Shown: in pieces, positions 19,608 to 26,638 of the stretch
How the letters are laid out: each line of letters begins with the position of its first letter
How positions within the stretch are numbered: the stretch's first letter is position 1
Source: a virus
Lineage: Duplodnaviria; Caudoviricetes
Length of the DNA: 58,066 nt
Virus record (IMG/VR): IMGVR_UViG_3300044734_000048
Span: 1-58,066 of that record
Direction: 5' to 3' (one strand)
Position numbers and translations under genes: made by a program
The notes under the pieces: model-generated
The model's database searches: none
What the model was told of the DNA's origin: nothing
Seen by the model: the letters and a program-made list of their open reading frames with translations, nothing else

Positions 19608-20573
19608 TTATGCTACCGCCCCATTAAAGAAGTACCCCAAATCTACCCCTAAAATTTTGTGATCGAACGCGTTTTGCCCTTCGACTCTCACCGCGCCGCC
19701 GGTGAGCGGAACAATCTCCTGCTTGACGCCGATGTTGTTATCGCCCATCCCGTAATCAACGCCGCGCCACACGAGCGTGTAGCCGGATGATGGAGTCAGA
19801 AGACCAGGATTGTCAGCCACGTGCAGAAGCAACGCGCTCTTGCCAAAAACGAAGCTATAAGCGGCAGCCTCACCTTCGACGCCCGTGTTCTTAATCGCTT
19901 TCGCAACATAGACGTTCTTGACATCGAACATCGCTGCCAGGAGAGCTTCATTGACCGTTCGGCCAGTAACAGAAGTGGTGTACTTGATGCGGTCAACGAT
20001 GTCCGGGTGATCTAGGAGTTGGTCGTAAACATCGTAGCCAAGCACCAGCGCGTTGGCGGGTTGACCTGTGATGGAAAGAATGGTTCGTTTAGCTGCTCGC
20101 ACGTCGCTGATGGGGTTGGAATTGCCGTAATCATTCCACAAATTCGCGGGCGTCGCATCCGTACCCCAGATGCCTGTTCCGAAGACATCGGAGACGAATT
20201 GAATCTCGCGCCGGAGAAGCATTCGCTGTGTGATGAAACGGGTGGCGTCTCTCTCAAGATCAACCTGCGGATCGGCGGTTGCCCTGATCTGCGGGCCGAT
20301 GTCCTTATGAAGCGCGAAGACATCGCAGCTATAGCCAACCGTACTCAGCCCGTAGCCGGAACCGGCAGATTCCGTAGCGTCTGCGCGCGGCTTTGCCTCA
20401 TCACGAAACCAATCGGCTTTGTTGTAGGTGAAGATTTTTCCCGTTGGCTTATCCACCGGAACAATCGGAAAAACTTTGGTGGCGATGAACTGGTCATCCG
20501 CTTGTTGATACGCCGTGCTGACATTAGTGAGCGCGGTGTCTATATGAACCTGTTGTAGGGTTGGCTGTGCCAT
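19608..20573 (-). CDS. Major capsid protein
   Basis: 'HIDTALTNVSTAY...FIATKVFPIVPV', 'SNPISDV' typical capsid motifs. Confidence 0.9.
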   Translation of the reverse strand: MAQPTLQQVHIDTALTNVSTAYQQADDQFIATKVFPIVPVDKPTGKIFTYNKADWFRDEAKPRADATESAGSGYGLSTVGYSCDVFALHKDIGPQIRATADPQVDLERDATRFITQRMLLRREIQFVSDVFGTGIWGTDATPANLWNDYGNSNPISDVRAAKRTILSITGQPANALVLGYDVYDQLLDHPDIVDRIKYTTSVTGRTVNEALLAAMFDVKNVYVAKAIKNTGVEGEAAAYSFVFGKSALLLHVADNPGLLTPSSGYTLVWRGVDYGMGDNNIGVKQEIVPLTGGAVRVEGQNAFDHKILGVDLGYFFNGAVA

Positions 20574-20594: not shown

Positions 20595-20987
20595 TTACGC
20601 CAGAGTGCGCTGGGAAGCGCAGTTGATGGCAGCAGTGATGAGTCCACCCGCAGCCGTGTTATCAATCAATACCTGGCCGTTAATGTATTTCGTAGTGTCG
20701 GCTGCGGTGTATGCGGCTGCCTGGCCGTCATTCGACGTGCCGATGGAATCGCCTGGCGCTAAGTCAGCATCACCCTCAAGTTTGGTAATCCCAACGATGC
20801 AGACATTGAGTCCGGCGGGCGCTCCGGCTCCGGTTGCCGGGTCTTGTGAAACGCCAATAGCCTTGTCAGTGACAGCCGAACATTCGACAATGGTATTAGC
20901 TGCGGAGAGCTTGACGTACCTGTACTGGCGAATCACGCCGCCGGGAACGAAACTCCAATTAAGTGGTTGTGCGCCTTCGACTGCCAT
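20595..20987 (-). CDS. Capsid decoration/cement protein (DUF2190-like)
   Basis: 'YRYVKL...AIGVSQ...GDSIGTSNDGQA'; immediately before the capsid gene. Confidence 0.7.
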   Translation of the reverse strand: MAVEGAQPLNWSFVPGGVIRQYRYVKLSAANTIVECSAVTDKAIGVSQDPATGAGAPAGLNVCIVGITKLEGDADLAPGDSIGTSNDGQAAAYTAADTTKYINGQVLIDNTAAGGLITAAINCASQRTLA

Positions 20988-22753
20988 TATTTTGCTCCTC
21001 TCGCCTCTTCGCGGTACTGCTGGCGAAGTTCTGTCTCAGTTGTGTAAACGTGGTCATAAGCCAGCGCGTAAGTCGGATAGGTCTGCGGGTCAAAGGCTTG
21101 GAGAGCTTTCGCCTTCGCATCTAACTGTGCCTGTGCGCTGCTACTCGCGCCATCACCGCCACTACGCCCAACCTCATCGAAAAGGCCGCTCTTTCTCACC
21201 TGCTCGGCATGAGCGCGCTGCTGTTCGACGTATTTCGTCATGCGGTCGGATGTTTCGCCGTCGTGCTCCGCGATGAACTCCATAAACGACAGATGATCTT
21301 CTGCTCCGCCGATGAAGCGTTTCGCGCCATTGCCGGTGGCATCATTGATGGTGTCAGAAAAGCGCTTAGTGCGGAGTTCCTTCTCGACTGCCGCCGTGCG
21401 CTCAGAAAGTTTGCGGCTTCCCTCTTCACTGGCCTTGCGCGCGGCGCGCTCTGTCTCAAGCTCGGCCTTTAACTCGGCAAAGCTCTGTGGCTCCGTTGCC
21501 TTCTTAGCCAGTGGGTTGCCGTCCGCATCGAACATGCCCGGACGTTTCTTGCCCTGCGCGTCAAAATGCGAATTATCGGTATCGCCCGTAGCAGTGGTGT
21601 CGTCGTCGCCACCACCATCCGGGTCTTTGGTTGTGGCAGCCTGACGCAAATCTTCCTGTTGTTTCGATGGCATCGAATTTGCTCCTTTTGAAATTGGCGC
21701 AAGCGCCGTGAAGATGACAGTCTGTGAATTAGGTAAATCCTTTGGCTCTGTCTCAGTTGCTTCTAGTCCGCGCTCACTTGCGACAAGTGGTCTTAAGGCT
21801 TTTTCTTTGAAGAAAGGTCGGGTCGTGAGTGCTCCGCCAACTGCGACATCGGAATGTTTTTCTTCAGTAGCGGGGTCAGTCCATTCCTCAAACCATTCAG
21901 GCGAGAAATACTTGAAACGATCATTCTCAATTAACGTCGTGCCTCTATCCGTCCACTCCGCTTTCGCATCCACAGAGCCATCCGTGTTGACTCTCATCTC
22001 AGTAATCCAGCCCAATGCTCCCGATAACTTAGTCTCGTGCTCGGCATCTATCGGCAACTTTTCCTGATAAACCTTGTCATCGAAATTCTTGACGAAGTTC
22101 TGGATGCGATCTTCCGTAATGTTGATTTCACCGTATCGCGGTGAGTTGTACTTTCCGGGTTTAGGCAGATAAGGAATCCAGTCGGGCGGCGTGGCAAATT
22201 CCTGCAACTCGTTGAAGAGACGCACGCCGTGACCATTAGCGCAGAGGTCAATGATGTTGATGCCTTCGCTCGCATTGACGGGCGCAAAGGTCTGCTCGAC
22301 TTCTACGGGGTCGTCAAACTCAACCTCGTCATCGGTAATCGTGTACGCAATCTGGTAATACTTCCCATCATCATTCGAGCAGACAATCACGTAAGCCGGA
22401 TAGATTTCTCGCGCCCAATAAAAATAGGATTCGTTTGAGAAAGGTTTCTTGAAGGATTCGCAAAGCGCAGAGTTGACCATCTCAATCATGCGCGTGTAGC
22501 TCATCTCTGCCATCGCAGGCTTGGCGTTCAAGCCCTTCGTCTTCCCACCCGCATGAGAGCGTGCGTAACGAACTGCTGCGCTGAATTGATCTTGCGTGAA
22601 GGTCTCGCCAGCCGTCTCTTTCATCTTTTCGTAGAGCTTGTTGAGAAACAGGTCGCCCGGCCCCTTGCGCTTCTTCTTGAGCGAAGTCGGTACACTGACC
22701 TCTGCGGATGGTGGCTGTTCAGCGATAAGTGATTCTTTCGCAGTCGGCATCAA
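20987..22753 (-). CDS. Mu-like prohead protease/scaffold
   Basis: 'PIDAEHE..ALGWI..AEWTDRG..FKYFSPE..GGALTTRPF'; coiled-coil C-terminal scaffold. Confidence 0.88.
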   Translation of the reverse strand: MMPTAKESLIAEQPPSAEVSVPTSLKKKRKGPGDLFLNKLYEKMKETAGETFTQDQFSAAVRYARSHAGGKTKGLNAKPAMAEMSYTRMIEMVNSALCESFKKPFSNESYFYWAREIYPAYVIVCSNDDGKYYQIAYTITDDEVEFDDPVEVEQTFAPVNASEGINIIDLCANGHGVRLFNELQEFATPPDWIPYLPKPGKYNSPRYGEINITEDRIQNFVKNFDDKVYQEKLPIDAEHETKLSGALGWITEMRVNTDGSVDAKAEWTDRGTTLIENDRFKYFSPEWFEEWTDPATEEKHSDVAVGGALTTRPFFKEKALRPLVASERGLEATETEPKDLPNSQTVIFTALAPISKGANSMPSKQQEDLRQAATTKDPDGGGDDDTTATGDTDNSHFDAQGKKRPGMFDADGNPLAKKATEPQSFAELKAELETERAARKASEEGSRKLSERTAAVEKELRTKRFSDTINDATGNGAKRFIGGAEDHLSFMEFIAEHDGETSDRMTKYVEQQRAHAEQVRKSGLFDEVGRSGGDGASSSAQAQLDAKAKALQAFDPQTYPTYALAYDHVYTTETELRQQYREEARGAK

Positions 22754-22810
22754 TGGCCTCCATGCGAAAGTATGAATGATGAAAATTGTCTATTTACGGT
22801 GAAGTGGAAG

Positions 22811-22828
22811 TGGTATAATCAGGGCATG
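22811..22828 (+). promoter_or_regulatory. Extended -10 promoter for a leaderless transcript
   Basis: TGGTATAAT (22811-22819), 6 nt before ATG 22826; no RBS. Confidence 0.6.
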
Positions 22829-23098
22829 AGTGTACAACGTGATTTTCTCTTCGTAGGCGGAAGCAAAGACGGCGAGTGGATGCCCCTGCCCGACACACGC
22901 TCGGTGTGGCGCGTTCCTATTGTGGAAAAGCAATCTATTGCCGAGCCTGCCCTAACGACAGGCATCCGCTACGAGCAATATTATTTGGAAAGGCTGCGCG
23001 CGACGCACGACTATCTTATTTACAGACACGAAAGCCTGACAATTGACAACGTAATAATGAGACTTCTTAAACACTACAAATCCGAATTAAGCGAATAG
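22826..23098 (+). CDS. Hypothetical protein
   Basis: 'FLFVGGSKDGEW' start motif common in small phage proteins. Confidence 0.6.
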   Translation: MSVQRDFLFVGGSKDGEWMPLPDTRSVWRVPIVEKQSIAEPALTTGIRYEQYYLERLRATHDYLIYRHESLTIDNVIMRLLKHYKSELSE

Positions 23099-23142
23099 CT
23101 CTTTCAAGCTGTTCCGCACACACCAAAAATTGGGGGTTAAAG

Positions 23143-23454
23143 ATGCCATACGTTATTCCAACATCTAACGGTTACTTTGTCATCAATGATGAGAAACGCC
23201 ACACTCTAGCCATCGCTTATACGAAGGAAGAGGAAGGATTCCTTTTTGAGAAGCGTAGACTAATGGTGAGACAAAACAGTGGTGCACTAGTCGGTCTGGA
23301 AATTGTTTGCGAAGAGGAACGAGAAGAAAAGTCAGGCATTAAGGTGCTAACCATCTACTTCGCACATCCCGGCACGTTTCGATTCGTGTCAGGGGAAAGC
23401 ACTGAAGCGGAACGCTATCGAATAGTCAGGGAGAGATTAGAGGCAATAGGATGA
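23143..23454 (+). CDS. Hypothetical protein
   Basis: GGGGG RBS; ORF. Confidence 0.55.
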   Translation: MPYVIPTSNGYFVINDEKRHTLAIAYTKEEEGFLFEKRRLMVRQNSGALVGLEIVCEEEREEKSGIKVLTIYFAHPGTFRFVSGESTEAERYRIVRERLEAIG

Positions 23455-23657
23455 GTAAAACCTCAACATTCTCCGAAGCCATGAACGACCTTATCATCAA
23501 GGCGATTGAGCTTAACTTTCCAGAAGCAAGGCAAAACAACATAGACATTGTGGACGGGCGTGGCGTGTCTATTTTAAGGCGAGAATACCAGGCACGGATA
23601 ATGCAGCAATGTGTTGATGAGACTCTTGGTTTACATTCAGCTGTAGAAGAGCAATGA
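23451..23657 (+). CDS. Hypothetical protein
   Basis: ATGA overlaps on both sides. Confidence 0.55.
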   Translation: MSKTSTFSEAMNDLIIKAIELNFPEARQNNIDIVDGRGVSILRREYQARIMQQCVDETLGLHSAVEEQ

Positions 23658-23917
23658 GCATTCAAATCAAACTTGAAGGCGGCGCGTTTGACGGACTTAC
23701 TTACACGGCTAAAGCAGGCTGCGCCGAACTACTGCTTGAGACATTAAGTCCCTCGCCATACGGCATACCGTTGCCTGACGATAAAGCCACGCTTAGGCAT
23801 GCAATTCGCAAAGGAACACACCCACTGCACGCGGCAACTTCACGCTACCACACAAGACGAACAGGTAAACAAGAATTATTAACGCGGCCATACGATCAAA
23901 CCACAACCGCTATTTAA
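23654..23917 (+). CDS. Hypothetical protein
   Basis: 'LEGGAFDG' motif like 22826; ATGA overlap. Confidence 0.55.
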   Translation: MSIQIKLEGGAFDGLTYTAKAGCAELLLETLSPSPYGIPLPDDKATLRHAIRKGTHPLHAATSRYHTRRTGKQELLTRPYDQTTTAI

Positions 23918-24164
23918 GAATTGGGTCGCGGCTCATCTCAACATTCTTAATCTCAAAGGCCAGCTTCTCAAGTCCCGCAAGCACCAGGTCAGTGGCGGTG
24001 TCAACTGAACCGGCAATCGTGTACCGAATCTTACTTACTTCAGCTTCACCCTTTGCGGTTTTAGGCACTTCCACGCCTACCAGAACAAAGCCCTGCAACT
24101 TTCCAGAGCGAGCGTCCTTCATTAAACTCTCAAGCTGCTTTGTGACGTTTGCGTTTTTCTTCAT
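23910..24164 (-). CDS. Hypothetical late gene whose start is the IS insertion site
   Basis: ORF; its ATGA is the reverse complement of the IS target TCAT. Confidence 0.65.
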   Translation of the reverse strand: MKKNANVTKQLESLMKDARSGKLQGFVLVGVEVPKTAKGEAEVSKIRYTIAGSVDTATDLVLAGLEKLAFEIKNVEMSRDPILK

Positions 24165-24318
24165 CCGAACCTCGCAGGAGACTGCGCGCCTTCAGGCCGC
24201 AGAGGAATGCGTAGCCCCACGCGCAGGCTTTCAACTGCGCGTTCTACCTCAACTAATTTGCCCGCTACGCCAGCAAAAATGAGGCTAAAAATAATTCGTA
24301 GAAAAGTGAAAATAACTA

Positions 24319-24360
24319 TTGACAGATACAACGTGACGTAGTAATATCTTCTCACGTTAG
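24319..24360 (+). promoter_or_regulatory. Sigma70 promoter with overlapping inverted repeat
   Basis: TTGACA-N17-TAATAT; AACGTGA...TCACGTT flanking the -10. Confidence 0.7.
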
Positions 24361-24394
24361 CAATAACGAATTTGACAGAGAAGAGGAAAAAACA

Positions 24395-24610
24395 ATGACA
24401 TTCACAGACATCAACGACCGAACGGGATTTGCGAACGGCGACAAGTTCACGAGCGACGAGCAGGTGAGAGAATATTTTACGCAACAGAACATCCGCGACA
24501 TGATTGGTAGCACCTATGACGATGAGGGCACGATGCCGAGTCAGGATGAACTTGACCAAATGGCCGAGACGGTGATTGAGAATCGTTGGCACTATGCGGA
24601 GAGCAAATAA
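24395..24610 (+). CDS. Small acidic hypothetical protein (IS cargo)
   Basis: AGAGG RBS; TAATG overlap with next gene. Confidence 0.65.
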   Translation: MTFTDINDRTGFANGDKFTSDEQVREYFTQQNIRDMIGSTYDDEGTMPSQDELDQMAETVIENRWHYAESK

Positions 24611-24810
24611 TGACGGGCGCGGAACTGAAAGCGCGACGCGAAAGGTTAGGGCTGAGCCAAACAGCCCTAGCCAATCTTTTAGGAACGACTCAAAACACGA
24701 TTTCTCGTTGGGAGCTTGGCACACTTCAAATCGAGAAATCACAGATGCTGGAATTGGCTTTGGAGGCACTAGAAAAACGTGGGACTCGCAACACAAAGCG
24801 GCGCGCATAG
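24610..24810 (+). CDS. XRE-family HTH regulator (IS cargo)
   Basis: 'MTGAELKARRERLGLSQTALANLLGTTQNTISRWELG'. Confidence 0.9.
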   Translation: MTGAELKARRERLGLSQTALANLLGTTQNTISRWELGTLQIEKSQMLELALEALEKRGTRNTKRRA

Positions 24811-25186
24811 CATTCACGCTCTCGCGTATCACTTGGTTTGGTGTGTCAAGTATCGCCACTCGATTCTGACTCACGAAATCGGAGATAGAGTCAAGGCGAT
24901 TATTGAAGACCTTGCCCTTGAACTCGGTTGCGAGATAATTGCTATCGAGACAGACGTTGACCACGTTCACATCGTTGTCAGGCTCAAGCACACGCACACG
25001 CTCTCGAAAATCGCCCACAGGTTCAAAGGCAGAACCGCTTACATGATTTTCAGAGAGTATCCGCAACTTAGAAATAGACTGTGGGGCGGCCATCTCTGGT
25101 CGCCCTCTTACTACGCTGCGACTGTAGGAGGCGCACCGCTTGAGACGATTAAGAAATATGTTGAAAGTCAACGTGAACATGAATAA
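24779..25186 (+). CDS. tnpA: IS200/IS605 Y1 transposase
   Basis: YHLVWCVKYR, HUH 'DHVH', LWSPSYY, 'IKKYVESQ' catalytic Tyr. Confidence 0.95.
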   Translation: MGLATQSGAHSIHALAYHLVWCVKYRHSILTHEIGDRVKAIIEDLALELGCEIIAIETDVDHVHIVVRLKHTHTLSKIAHRFKGRTAYMIFREYPQLRNRLWGGHLWSPSYYAATVGGAPLETIKKYVESQREHE

Positions 25187-25270
25187 TGTCTAACCCTTAC
25201 CTCGCACGGTTTGTAATAGAAGCCACTTCTTTGAAAGTGGTGGAGCATTCACACTTACCCTACCTTTCAA

Positions 25271-26638
25271 TCACGCTTCATTAGGATTAGACGGCACAGG
25301 CTGTACAAGCGGCTTTGCTTGCGGTGCTGTTGGCTGGCTAACAATTTCGTTCACGGGAAAACTATCATCCACCTGTTGCAAGATATAATTGACCTGCTCA
25401 TCCGTGAACACGATTCCAGCTTGCGCCGCATTAACGATGAAAGTTCCGAATGATGCCAAATCAATCTGGTCAATCTTGCCATGCTCTAGCGTTGGCACTC
25501 GCTCTGTAGAATAACCGTTGAGTTTTAAGAGTCGGGGAATCGCGTGACGATTTACCACGCCACAAATCGAATCCATCCAAGCGCCGATTACGGTAGAAAA
25601 CAGTTCGGTCTTATCGGCTGAGAGCGCGTAAGAGCCTCGCCCGGATGAGCCTGCGCCTAAAATCAGAAAGTCAGAAAGCGTGGTAATCAAAAGATCGTGC
25701 TTGTAGCGGTCAATGACTGTGCTCGTGTCAATCAGCCTTCGGCTGTTCGTGCCGGAGAGTTTAAAGTCATACAGCTTGTTATGATTGTTGTCATAGACAA
25801 GTGGGAACATTAAACACGCTTGCTCATCGTTCCGAACATTTTGACCCACCTTTATCCAAGCTGCTTTTGCTGCTCTGTCATCATCCGTCTTCGGATTGGC
25901 GATATTTGGCGGAACCCACAGTTCGGGTATTCCCGCTAAATCCCGCTCAATGCCTATCGCTTCTATACGAGCGATATTCTTCATGTAGTAATAGGCTTCG
26001 TATCCGCGCCTGAAAATACTCTCGCCCTCTGGATTGCCCTTGTGAACAGTCGTTCTAAACAGTAAAGATTTCTCTATTGGTATCACACGAGTCTTGAAAT
26101 CAGGCGGCGGCAGTTGGACAAGCGCAGAGATTCCCCCTTCATCATCAAACTGCCAGCGCAACAAACTCTCTTGGGAGCGAATCGCCCACTTGCGCCAGCC
26201 GATCTTTCCATCATTGAAATTGCTTTGCGGTAGTTGTTTCTCAACGCCTGAGCTATCCTTATAAGTTCCGGGATTATCGCCACGCCGTTCTTTGTAGCAC
26301 TCCTCGAACCAACTCCAACCCCAGGGCAGCATGGTCAGGATTTCCGCCACGAGGTCAGGCCAGGCCGTTGACATGTCGCTATGGCAGCTATCTATAAAGT
26401 CTGCCGCTTCCTTGTCTTTATTTTCTTCACTTGCTGACTTAACCGTAAATTCTGTTTGTCTAATCAACATCTCGACAGCAAAGAGGATGGCCCCGCAAAT
26501 GGCGTTGGTGAGCATCCGGCGAATAGTGCGGGTCTTAAAGAGTCCTTTCCATTCCGGCGTGTTGTCTTCATAGATATATCCGCCGGACTGGTTAAGTCCG
26601 GTGCGTCCGATTTCTTCGAGAATGATAGGTTCAGCCAT
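25271..26638 (-). CDS. Portal protein (Mu gp29/DUF935-like)
   Basis: 'GWSWFE', 'GNPEGESIFR', 'AIGIERDLAGIP', 'GSYALS'. Confidence 0.9.
   Translation of the reverse strand: MAEPIILEEIGRTGLNQSGGYIYEDNTPEWKGLFKTRTIRRMLTNAICGAILFAVEMLIRQTEFTVKSASEENKDKEAADFIDSCHSDMSTAWPDLVAEILTMLPWGWSWFEECYKERRGDNPGTYKDSSGVEKQLPQSNFNDGKIGWRKWAIRSQESLLRWQFDDEGGISALVQLPPPDFKTRVIPIEKSLLFRTTVHKGNPEGESIFRRGYEAYYYMKNIARIEAIGIERDLAGIPELWVPPNIANPKTDDDRAAKAAWIKVGQNVRNDEQACLMFPLVYDNNHNKLYDFKLSGTNSRRLIDTSTVIDRYKHDLLITTLSDFLILGAGSSGRGSYALSADKTELFSTVIGAWMDSICGVVNRHAIPRLLKLNGYSTERVPTLEHGKIDQIDLASFGTFIVNAAQAGIVFTDEQVNYILQQVDDSFPVNEIVSQPTAPQAKPLVQPVPSNPNEA

Follow-up and report, generated by a model that had tools for sequence, protein, structure and literature searches.

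A stop-free antisense reading frame in phase with the target site in a mostly phage-resident IS200/IS605 lineage

Introduction

Insertion sequences such as IS608 of Helicobacter pylori and ISDra2 of Deinococcus radiodurans encode a Y1 transposase of the HUH type, end in subterminal hairpins instead of inverted repeats, and insert 3′ of a fixed tetra- or pentanucleotide without duplicating the target. The same features are found in the IS200/IS605-family element studied here, which occupies positions 24165-25252 of the provirus record IMGVR_UViG_3300044734_000048 from IMG/VR (58 kb; the whole stretch of 58,066 nucleotides (nt) is hereafter called the window). Its guides pair with the cleavage sites as in the IS608 scheme described below, at distances of 17 instead of 19 nt on the left and 8 instead of 10 nt on the right. 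Unlike IS608 and ISDra2, it has TTCAT as the target and TCAC at the right end, both junctions reading NTGA on the other strand; a small family-less gene and a helix-turn-helix (HTH) gene upstream of tnpA replace tnpB, and the lineage of this element is found mainly in phage DNA.

Insertions into operons are normally polar, and polarity sets the cost of a transposon to its host. In an ATGA overlap, the stop codon overlaps the next start codon, which allows ribosomes that terminate there to re-initiate; in engineered non-polar cassettes, a start signal at the end keeps the downstream gene translated. The proposal made below differs from such couplings and laboratory cassettes in that a natural transposon would use its own target as the coupling signal. 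IStrons, which combine an IS605-type element with a group I intron and share the transposase family, have the same apparent aim, namely an insertion that is harmless to the interrupted transcription unit (PMC4227781). They are inserted in the sense direction and removed by RNA self-splicing, whereas our element contains no group I intron and the remedy proposed for it is that the antisense strand is translated. In the case of art200, antisense expression across an IS200-type element has a known role (PMC4513863); unlike art200, a short non-coding RNA opposite the 5′ untranslated region of tnpA, the frame described here has 340 to >600 codons and spans the element. Full-text searches outside subscription journals and supplements returned no description of such an antisense frame in IS200/IS605 elements.

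Results

An intact IS200/IS605 element separates a ribosome-binding site from its start codon

The element, its ends and the interrupted host gene are laid out as follows (ORF, open reading frame; aa, amino acids).

24165-25252, top strand = plus: IS200/IS605-family element, 1088 bp; ends set from relatives with unrelated flanks
24160-24164, plus: target pentanucleotide TTCAT, outside the element; as reverse complement it reads ATGAA, the 84-aa gene's start codon and two further bases
23910-24164, minus: interrupted host gene, 84 aa, an ORFan starting with ATGA (ORF list)
24178-24202, plus: left end with guide GAGA (24178-24181) and imperfect hairpin (24182-24202); cleavage 17 nt 5′ of the hairpin foot
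24319-24347, plus: promoter-like site TTGACA-17-TAATAT upstream of the three sense genes; 10/12 matches, consensus scan only
24395-24610, plus: cargo gene g1, 71 aa, family-less (no match in Pfam, PHROGs or NCBIfam)
24610-24810, plus: cargo gene g2, 66 aa, XRE-type HTH (HTH_31, E 3.6e-10; HTH_3, E 5.2e-10)
24779-25186, plus: tnpA, Y1 (HUH) transposase, 135 aa, GTG start (Y1_Tnp, E 3.7e-42)
25219-25252, plus: right end with guide GAAG (25219-25222), hairpin (about 25223-25240) and cleavage site TCAC (25249-25252), from motif and folding
25253-25273, minus: portal gene stop TGA (25273-25271) and 18-nt spacer (25270-25253) with the Shine-Dalgarno-like AAGGTAGGG at 25266-25258
25190-25252, minus: antisense leader of 20 codons from GTG 25252-25250, supplied by the element's end, followed by TAG 25192-25190; it replaces the original ATG behind the host ribosome-binding site (RBS)
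24161-25180, minus: antisense ORF of 339 codons from ATG 25180, in the leader's frame; its stop TGA and the start ATG of the 84-aa gene share an ATGA

The segment 24165-25252 is a bona fide, intact IS200/IS605 element. TnpA matches Y1_Tnp over profile positions 2-121 of 121 and belongs to the NCBIfam equivalog NF033573 (143.8 bits; cut-off, 55); its best solved relatives are PDB 2xm3 (E 4.8e-33) and 2a6m of ISHp608 (E 3.5e-26), and H62, H64 and Y127 are invariant in an alignment of 6 proteins of its clade, which is defined below. No Rfam family, group I introns included, was matched on either strand of 23800-25500 at E values up to 1. That the element is mobile we infer only from related elements in differing contexts, including two in one genome (L229 and L232; loci are given L numbers throughout). 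A 12-nt direct repeat (11/12 identical) including TTCAC, at 24809-24820 in the 5′ part of tnpA and at 25244-25255 across the right-end junction, is probably due to chance.

Both ends follow the IS608 scheme, in which (PMC3201880) cleavage bases 2, 1 and 4 pair with guide bases 1, 2 and 4 and the guide sits directly 5′ of the hairpin foot. TCAT (24161-24164), the reverse complement of the ATGA that opens ORF 23910-24164, pairs with GAGA through C:G, T:A and T:A, and TCAC pairs with GAAG through C:G, T:A and C:G, so the sole difference between the two cleavage sites (T versus C) is mirrored in the guides (T:A versus C:G). The left end starts directly after TTCAT in the window and in L003, L109, L008, L229 and L232, all with unrelated flanks, and after TTCAC in L004. 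The right end takes the form GAAGCC-hairpin-GGAG-N2-3-TCAC in 10 clade loci, namely the window, L003, L008, L057 and L109 and the tnpB-bearing L110, L111, L112, L113 and L116. Hairpins were folded one by one, as MAFFT alignments of the ends put the hairpin arms out of register; one directly follows the guide in 6/6 left ends and 6/8 right ends folded, with differing stem sequences. No terminal inverted repeat joins the ends of the element, and neither a target duplication nor a flanking direct repeat was found. The left-end boundaries of the tnpB-bearing L110, L111, L115 and L116 are uncertain, with flanks ending in TCAA in three of them. A DNA pattern for the left end, run over viral contigs, returned 118 stretches and was too loose: 0/118 lay beside a clade tnpA and 2/118 beside any TnpA match, at 34-38% identity.

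When 24165-25252 is excised in silico, the 18-nt spacer directly precedes ATG 24164. In the occupied site, the right-end TCAC makes the upstream junction read GTGA where ATGA stood, and AAGGTAGGG now faces the GTG of the element at the same spacing as to the original ATG. An earlier note on this DNA had described an IS200 element with these ends, obeying the guide-cleavage rule on both sides and inserted exactly between an RBS and its start codon, and had traced on the other strand a 20-codon GTG leader ending at TAG and a 339-codon ORF ending in ATGA. Every coordinate proved right. Relatives with unrelated flanks share the ends, each guide forms three canonical pairs and is followed by a hairpin, and the excised sequence restores the spacer before its ATG.

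The minus-strand frame of the window element is open beyond expectation

Read on the minus strand from its terminal GTG, the element has only two stops in 1094 nt, the TAG at offset 60 and the TGA of the target ATGA at offset 1089, versus 22 stops in each of the other two minus-strand frames. A GAGG lies at offset 49 from the right end. The open frame is codon-aligned with tnpA and the 71-aa gene and not with the HTH gene. Among 52 other window ORFs of at least 120 aa, TTA, CTA and TCA together make up 3.48% of 14418 codons, and the longest codon-aligned antisense run is 180 codons, versus 342 in the element. Synonymous resampling with the codon usage of the window left the frame open in 0.07% of 20000 trials, and when the non-coding parts were shuffled as well it was open in 0/20000. 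The 339-codon ORF matched no Pfam family, and a consensus scan found no antisense promoter-like site inside the element.

The open frame is selected across the clade

To compare relatives, we collected 150 loci whose TnpA matches extend over 100 aa or more; 15 loci at least 53% identical form the clade, and 135 are the others. The stop-free antisense frame is a selected, non-random property of the clade that is tied in phase to the target. A tnpA-aligned antisense frame is open over at least 187 codons in 13/15 clade loci versus 7/135 others, which sets the lineage apart from most family members sampled, and over at least 290 codons in 11/15 clade loci. Among 39 non-clade loci with matching GC content, 6 reach 187 codons and the median is 81. 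Long-frame loci outside the clade include L130 and L124, with tnpA GC contents of 0.66 and 0.62; L167 (0.54) and L174 (0.49), which are not GC-rich; and L135-137, three near-identical copies whose tnpB has a GC content at third codon positions (GC3) near 0.8. Three further intact clade members found in genomes have antisense frames of 397 (L229), 356 (L232) and 18 (L230) codons.

This openness is reflected in the codons whose complements are stops. TTA, CTA and TCA occur 1, 109 and 70 times at phases 0, 1 and 2 of 12 clade tnpA genes (1610 codons), and 11, 100 and 76 times in 5 clade tnpB genes (1825 codons). Even genes of the clade set with a GC3 of 0.38 commonly use TTG and CTT and almost lack TTA and CTA, whereas in distant IS605 tnpB genes TTA, CTA and TCA are about as frequent as in the flanking host genes. 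We also considered whether these trinucleotides are avoided as cleavage motifs and rejected this, since they are common in the other two phases.

When synonymous codons were resampled in 10 elements, with the codon table of the window used for all, no element had its frame open in more than 0.1% of 20000 trials. The check proposed in the earlier note, whether the antisense frame stays open in homologues more often than in controls, thus has a positive outcome (P ≤0.001 per element). With tnpA excluded, the left ends and cargo of 6 elements contain 3 antisense stops against 37.9 expected, in sequences where the first genes are non-homologous, the HTH genes belong to two families and several genes lie in other frames. 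This depletion argues that the constraint acts on the antisense frame rather than on the choice of sense codons. Per element, 15-24 stops are found in the other two antisense frames.

Similar frames were seen in more distant elements. L146, L121, L122 and L128 are tnpA-tnpB elements with TnpA 40-46% identical and a GC content of 0.36-0.38; their antisense ORFs of 260 to >398 codons are aligned with tnpB and cross tnpA. The phenomenon may extend beyond the clade studied. Within the tnpB-bearing relatives L110, L111, L115, L116 and L231, the antisense ORF begins at a common ATG, which opens the peptide MNTNGQIF or a similar one some 120-130 nt from the right end, in the 3′ part of tnpB and downstream of the stretch where the guide RNA scaffold is expected; stops cluster only in that first stretch. 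At 1009-4416 of L110 (minus strand), the antisense frame is open for 1136 codons in all: it spans tnpB, tnpA, some 1.3 kb of cargo and the left end and runs on in frame for about 240 codons into a real-looking minus-strand host gene.

Copies of the element are few. It occurs once in the virus record and once in the host metagenome-assembled genome (MAG; G001), and one full copy each was found in the genomes of L003, L004, L008 and L005 and in the viral record of L057. A survey of 401 sampled genomes of the phylum returned only distant TnpA genes, whereas 401 sampled genomes of the class yielded four new loci; by blastn, the element matched nothing in the phage and plasmid collections. In L057 (2700-3010), only the 3′ part of an HTH gene stands upstream of tnpA and no left end was found, and this is probably a 5′-truncated copy.

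The open frame keeps its phase to the target in elements that reside mostly in phage DNA

The left end is separated from the start of tnpA by 614, 653, 728, 953 and 176 nt in the window, L003, L109, L008 and L229/L232, respectively, and every one of these values is 2 mod 3. As a result, 5/6 independent elements have their open frame in phase with the TGA that the target ATGA contains. The frame is free of stops up to this TGA in the window, L109, L229 and L232.

L109 (element at 606-1775) offers a second junction of the kind seen in the window. Without the element, a gene of about 150 aa is predicted to share an ATGA overlap with a phage endolysin gene (phrog_181, E 2.9e-18). The upstream gene stops at an unchanged place through the GTGA of the element, its last codon being changed synonymously. 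The 374-codon antisense ORF closes in an ATGA that also holds the start of the endolysin gene, and both neighbours are intact.

Besides the window and L109, phage-like flanks are found in L057 (a viral contig), L111 (phrog_2045 and a minor head protein), L003 (a replication initiator), L229 (a DnaC-like loader) and L008. The clade is mostly phage-resident, and a home in phage operons would make selection against polarity plausible. L229 and L232, both in genome G479, have a common left end and tnpA and differ in their downstream genes (261 aa and 143 aa), for which no NCBIfam match was found; both follow TTCAT close to the 3′ end of host genes in the same orientation.

The element sits in the head module of a Mu-like prophage

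The window is identical to contig L002 of an Acidobacteriota MAG (100% over the 5501 nt compared), and profile searches place a Mu-like head module on the minus strand around the element, with the following genes.

25271-26638, minus: portal gene (Pfam Portal_Mu, E 1.2e-22), stop TGA 25273-25271
20987-22753, minus: Mu-like protease/scaffold gene (E 1.3e-11)
19608-20573, minus: major head protein gene (phrog_1005, E 5.2e-83)

Judged from these sequence matches, the window is a Mu-like prophage of the Acidobacteriota MAG. The 84-aa protein encoded next to the element found only itself among 5.8 billion proteins searched in a near-length range, and it has no PHROG. Between the 84-aa gene and the Mu-like protease gene, four plus-strand ORFs of 108, 103, 68 and 87 aa are tightly packed at 22772-23917, their stops and starts overlapping, and are convergent to the head module. 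None of the four has a PHROG match, and the block looks like a cassette inserted in the opposite direction.

Discussion

The open frame and its phase suggest that the antisense frame of the element may be translated, avoiding polarity and re-coupling the downstream gene at the ATGA, a relay that we place just short of an even chance. The single-strand mechanism of the IS200/IS605 family would insert the element 3′ of TTCAT, and the TCAC of its right end preserves a start-like codon or the stop of the upstream gene, with GTGA in place of ATGA. One antisense frame is free of stops over tnpA, the cargo and the left end. The host operon would be transcribed through the element from the right end, near which ribosomes would load; in the window, the path would run from the orphaned RBS through the 20-codon GTG leader to the TAG, with re-initiation 9 nt further on at ATG 25180. 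Translation of the whole element would shield the RNA from Rho-type polarity, and ribosomes would terminate on the ATGA and re-initiate on the host gene. Insertion would then cost the phage little. The wider proposal that the lineage is translationally transparent in phage operons, combining an ATGAA target, its own GTGA upstream, a full-length antisense frame and a handback at ATGA, is tentative and on balance doubtful. The ATGAA would here be targeted as a motif of start codons and of start/stop overlaps, on the strand opposite tnpA.

Several observations weigh against such a relay. The clade loci share ancestry and their counts are not fully independent, and a single codon table served for all elements in the resampling. 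L112, L005 and L230 are intact clade members without an open frame, L004 (847 nt from left end to tnpA) is out of phase, and in L003 and L008 additional stops lie no more than 30 nt from the left end. At least L008, L229, L232, L111 and L116 are co-oriented with their neighbours, where an antisense relay would be of no use. The elements show no conserved entry step: the terminal GTG shares the phase of the long frame in only 3/5 of them, the initial 17-130 nt of the right end contain 1-4 stops, and the earliest start codons, mostly TTG, lack a GAGG at good spacing. The host MAG holds one copy of the element. Searches for an empty-site allele found none: among viral contigs, the portal protein matched only L227 and L228 (48-49% identity) and the 84-aa protein had no match. 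Two soil-metagenome DNA runs contain the stretch and may be its source, and no RNA run containing it is listed; contigs from the DNA runs had no joints and are uninformative on excision or expression.

These results also narrow what the earlier note had drawn from the window. A bias towards start codons, implied by the note, is unsupported: antisense start codons account for only 2/6 TTCAT sites, and 12-19/140 ATGAA sites in the window are at ORF starts as background (binomial P ~0.1, an estimate). The note also had ribosomes possibly passing through to the downstream head genes, which is overstated, as only the 84-aa ORFan comes next, followed by the four plus-strand ORFs and then the Mu-like protease gene. 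As for the ribosome relay itself, the open frame and its phase to the target TGA stand, and conservation of the entry step does not.

The frame might instead be kept open for the benefit of the element itself, its overlap with a host start codon being incidental; for example, translation could keep read-through RNA from silencing tnpA mRNA, or a regulatory antisense RNA could be stabilised. Antisense RNA control of IS200 is known (PMC4513863), the open frame is present whatever the orientation to the neighbours, and it also covers tnpB in relatives with a seemingly different left-end target. We consider this unlikely, because it does not explain the phase with the target TGA in 5/6 independent elements or the prevalence of the clade in phage operons, and because the element has no antisense promoter-like site that the consensus scan could find. 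That the frame is a functionless by-product of the codon usage of a GC-rich ancestor and of shared descent is improbable. The codon-aligned antisense frame is indeed the one most easily open, kinship within the clade inflates the counts, and unrelated GC-rich tnpA and tnpB genes have open frames too (L130, 478 codons at GC 0.66; L135-137, L164 and L185, GC3 0.76-0.80). However, L115 and L116 contain 0-1 TTA and 0-1 CTA codons at a GC3 of only 0.38-0.46, the depletion to 3 stops against 37.9 expected extends to cargo in other frames and to AT-rich non-coding left ends, the other two antisense frames carry their 15-24 stops per element, and the phase has been kept despite indels of very different length.

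Two further explanations involve the encoded protein. Rickettsia palindromic elements (RPE) in genes are translated in frame as part of the host protein, and an open frame could likewise allow translation within a host protein or as a fusion, as the L110 frame of 1136 codons, running about 240 codons into a host gene from the left end, might suggest. This is decidedly improbable: stops in all three frames within the first 17-130 nt of the right end mean that a host frame cannot enter, the TTCAT target ends the frame at the junction, and a host protein is unlikely to tolerate an insert of 340-1100 residues. In the window, moreover, TAG 25192-25190 and the target TGA close the frame on its two sides, and the flanking host genes are separate. 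It is highly improbable that the antisense ORF is a true overlapping gene with a functional protein, even though it is long (339 aa), starts with ATG and, in tnpB-bearing relatives, has the common start MNTNGQIF. It matches no Pfam family, and with unrelated first cargo genes and HTH genes of two families its sequence over the cargo is unconserved; the common start opposes a conserved stretch of TnpB, and no separate selection is needed to account for it.

Whatever its function, the depletion of antisense stops over tnpA, tnpB, varied cargo and non-coding ends calls for an explanation. If the relay is real, selection would act on a reading frame for its openness and not for its encoded content, and the target sequence of the element would itself be a translational coupling signal, giving a functional reason for the target-site preference. 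IStrons are the known self-neutralising insertion in the IS200/IS605 family; polarity avoidance encoded by this lineage would be distinct from IStron RNA splicing and would constitute a second solution, at the level of translation. It would also explain how insertion sequences persist in phage genomes, where almost every base lies in a coupled operon.

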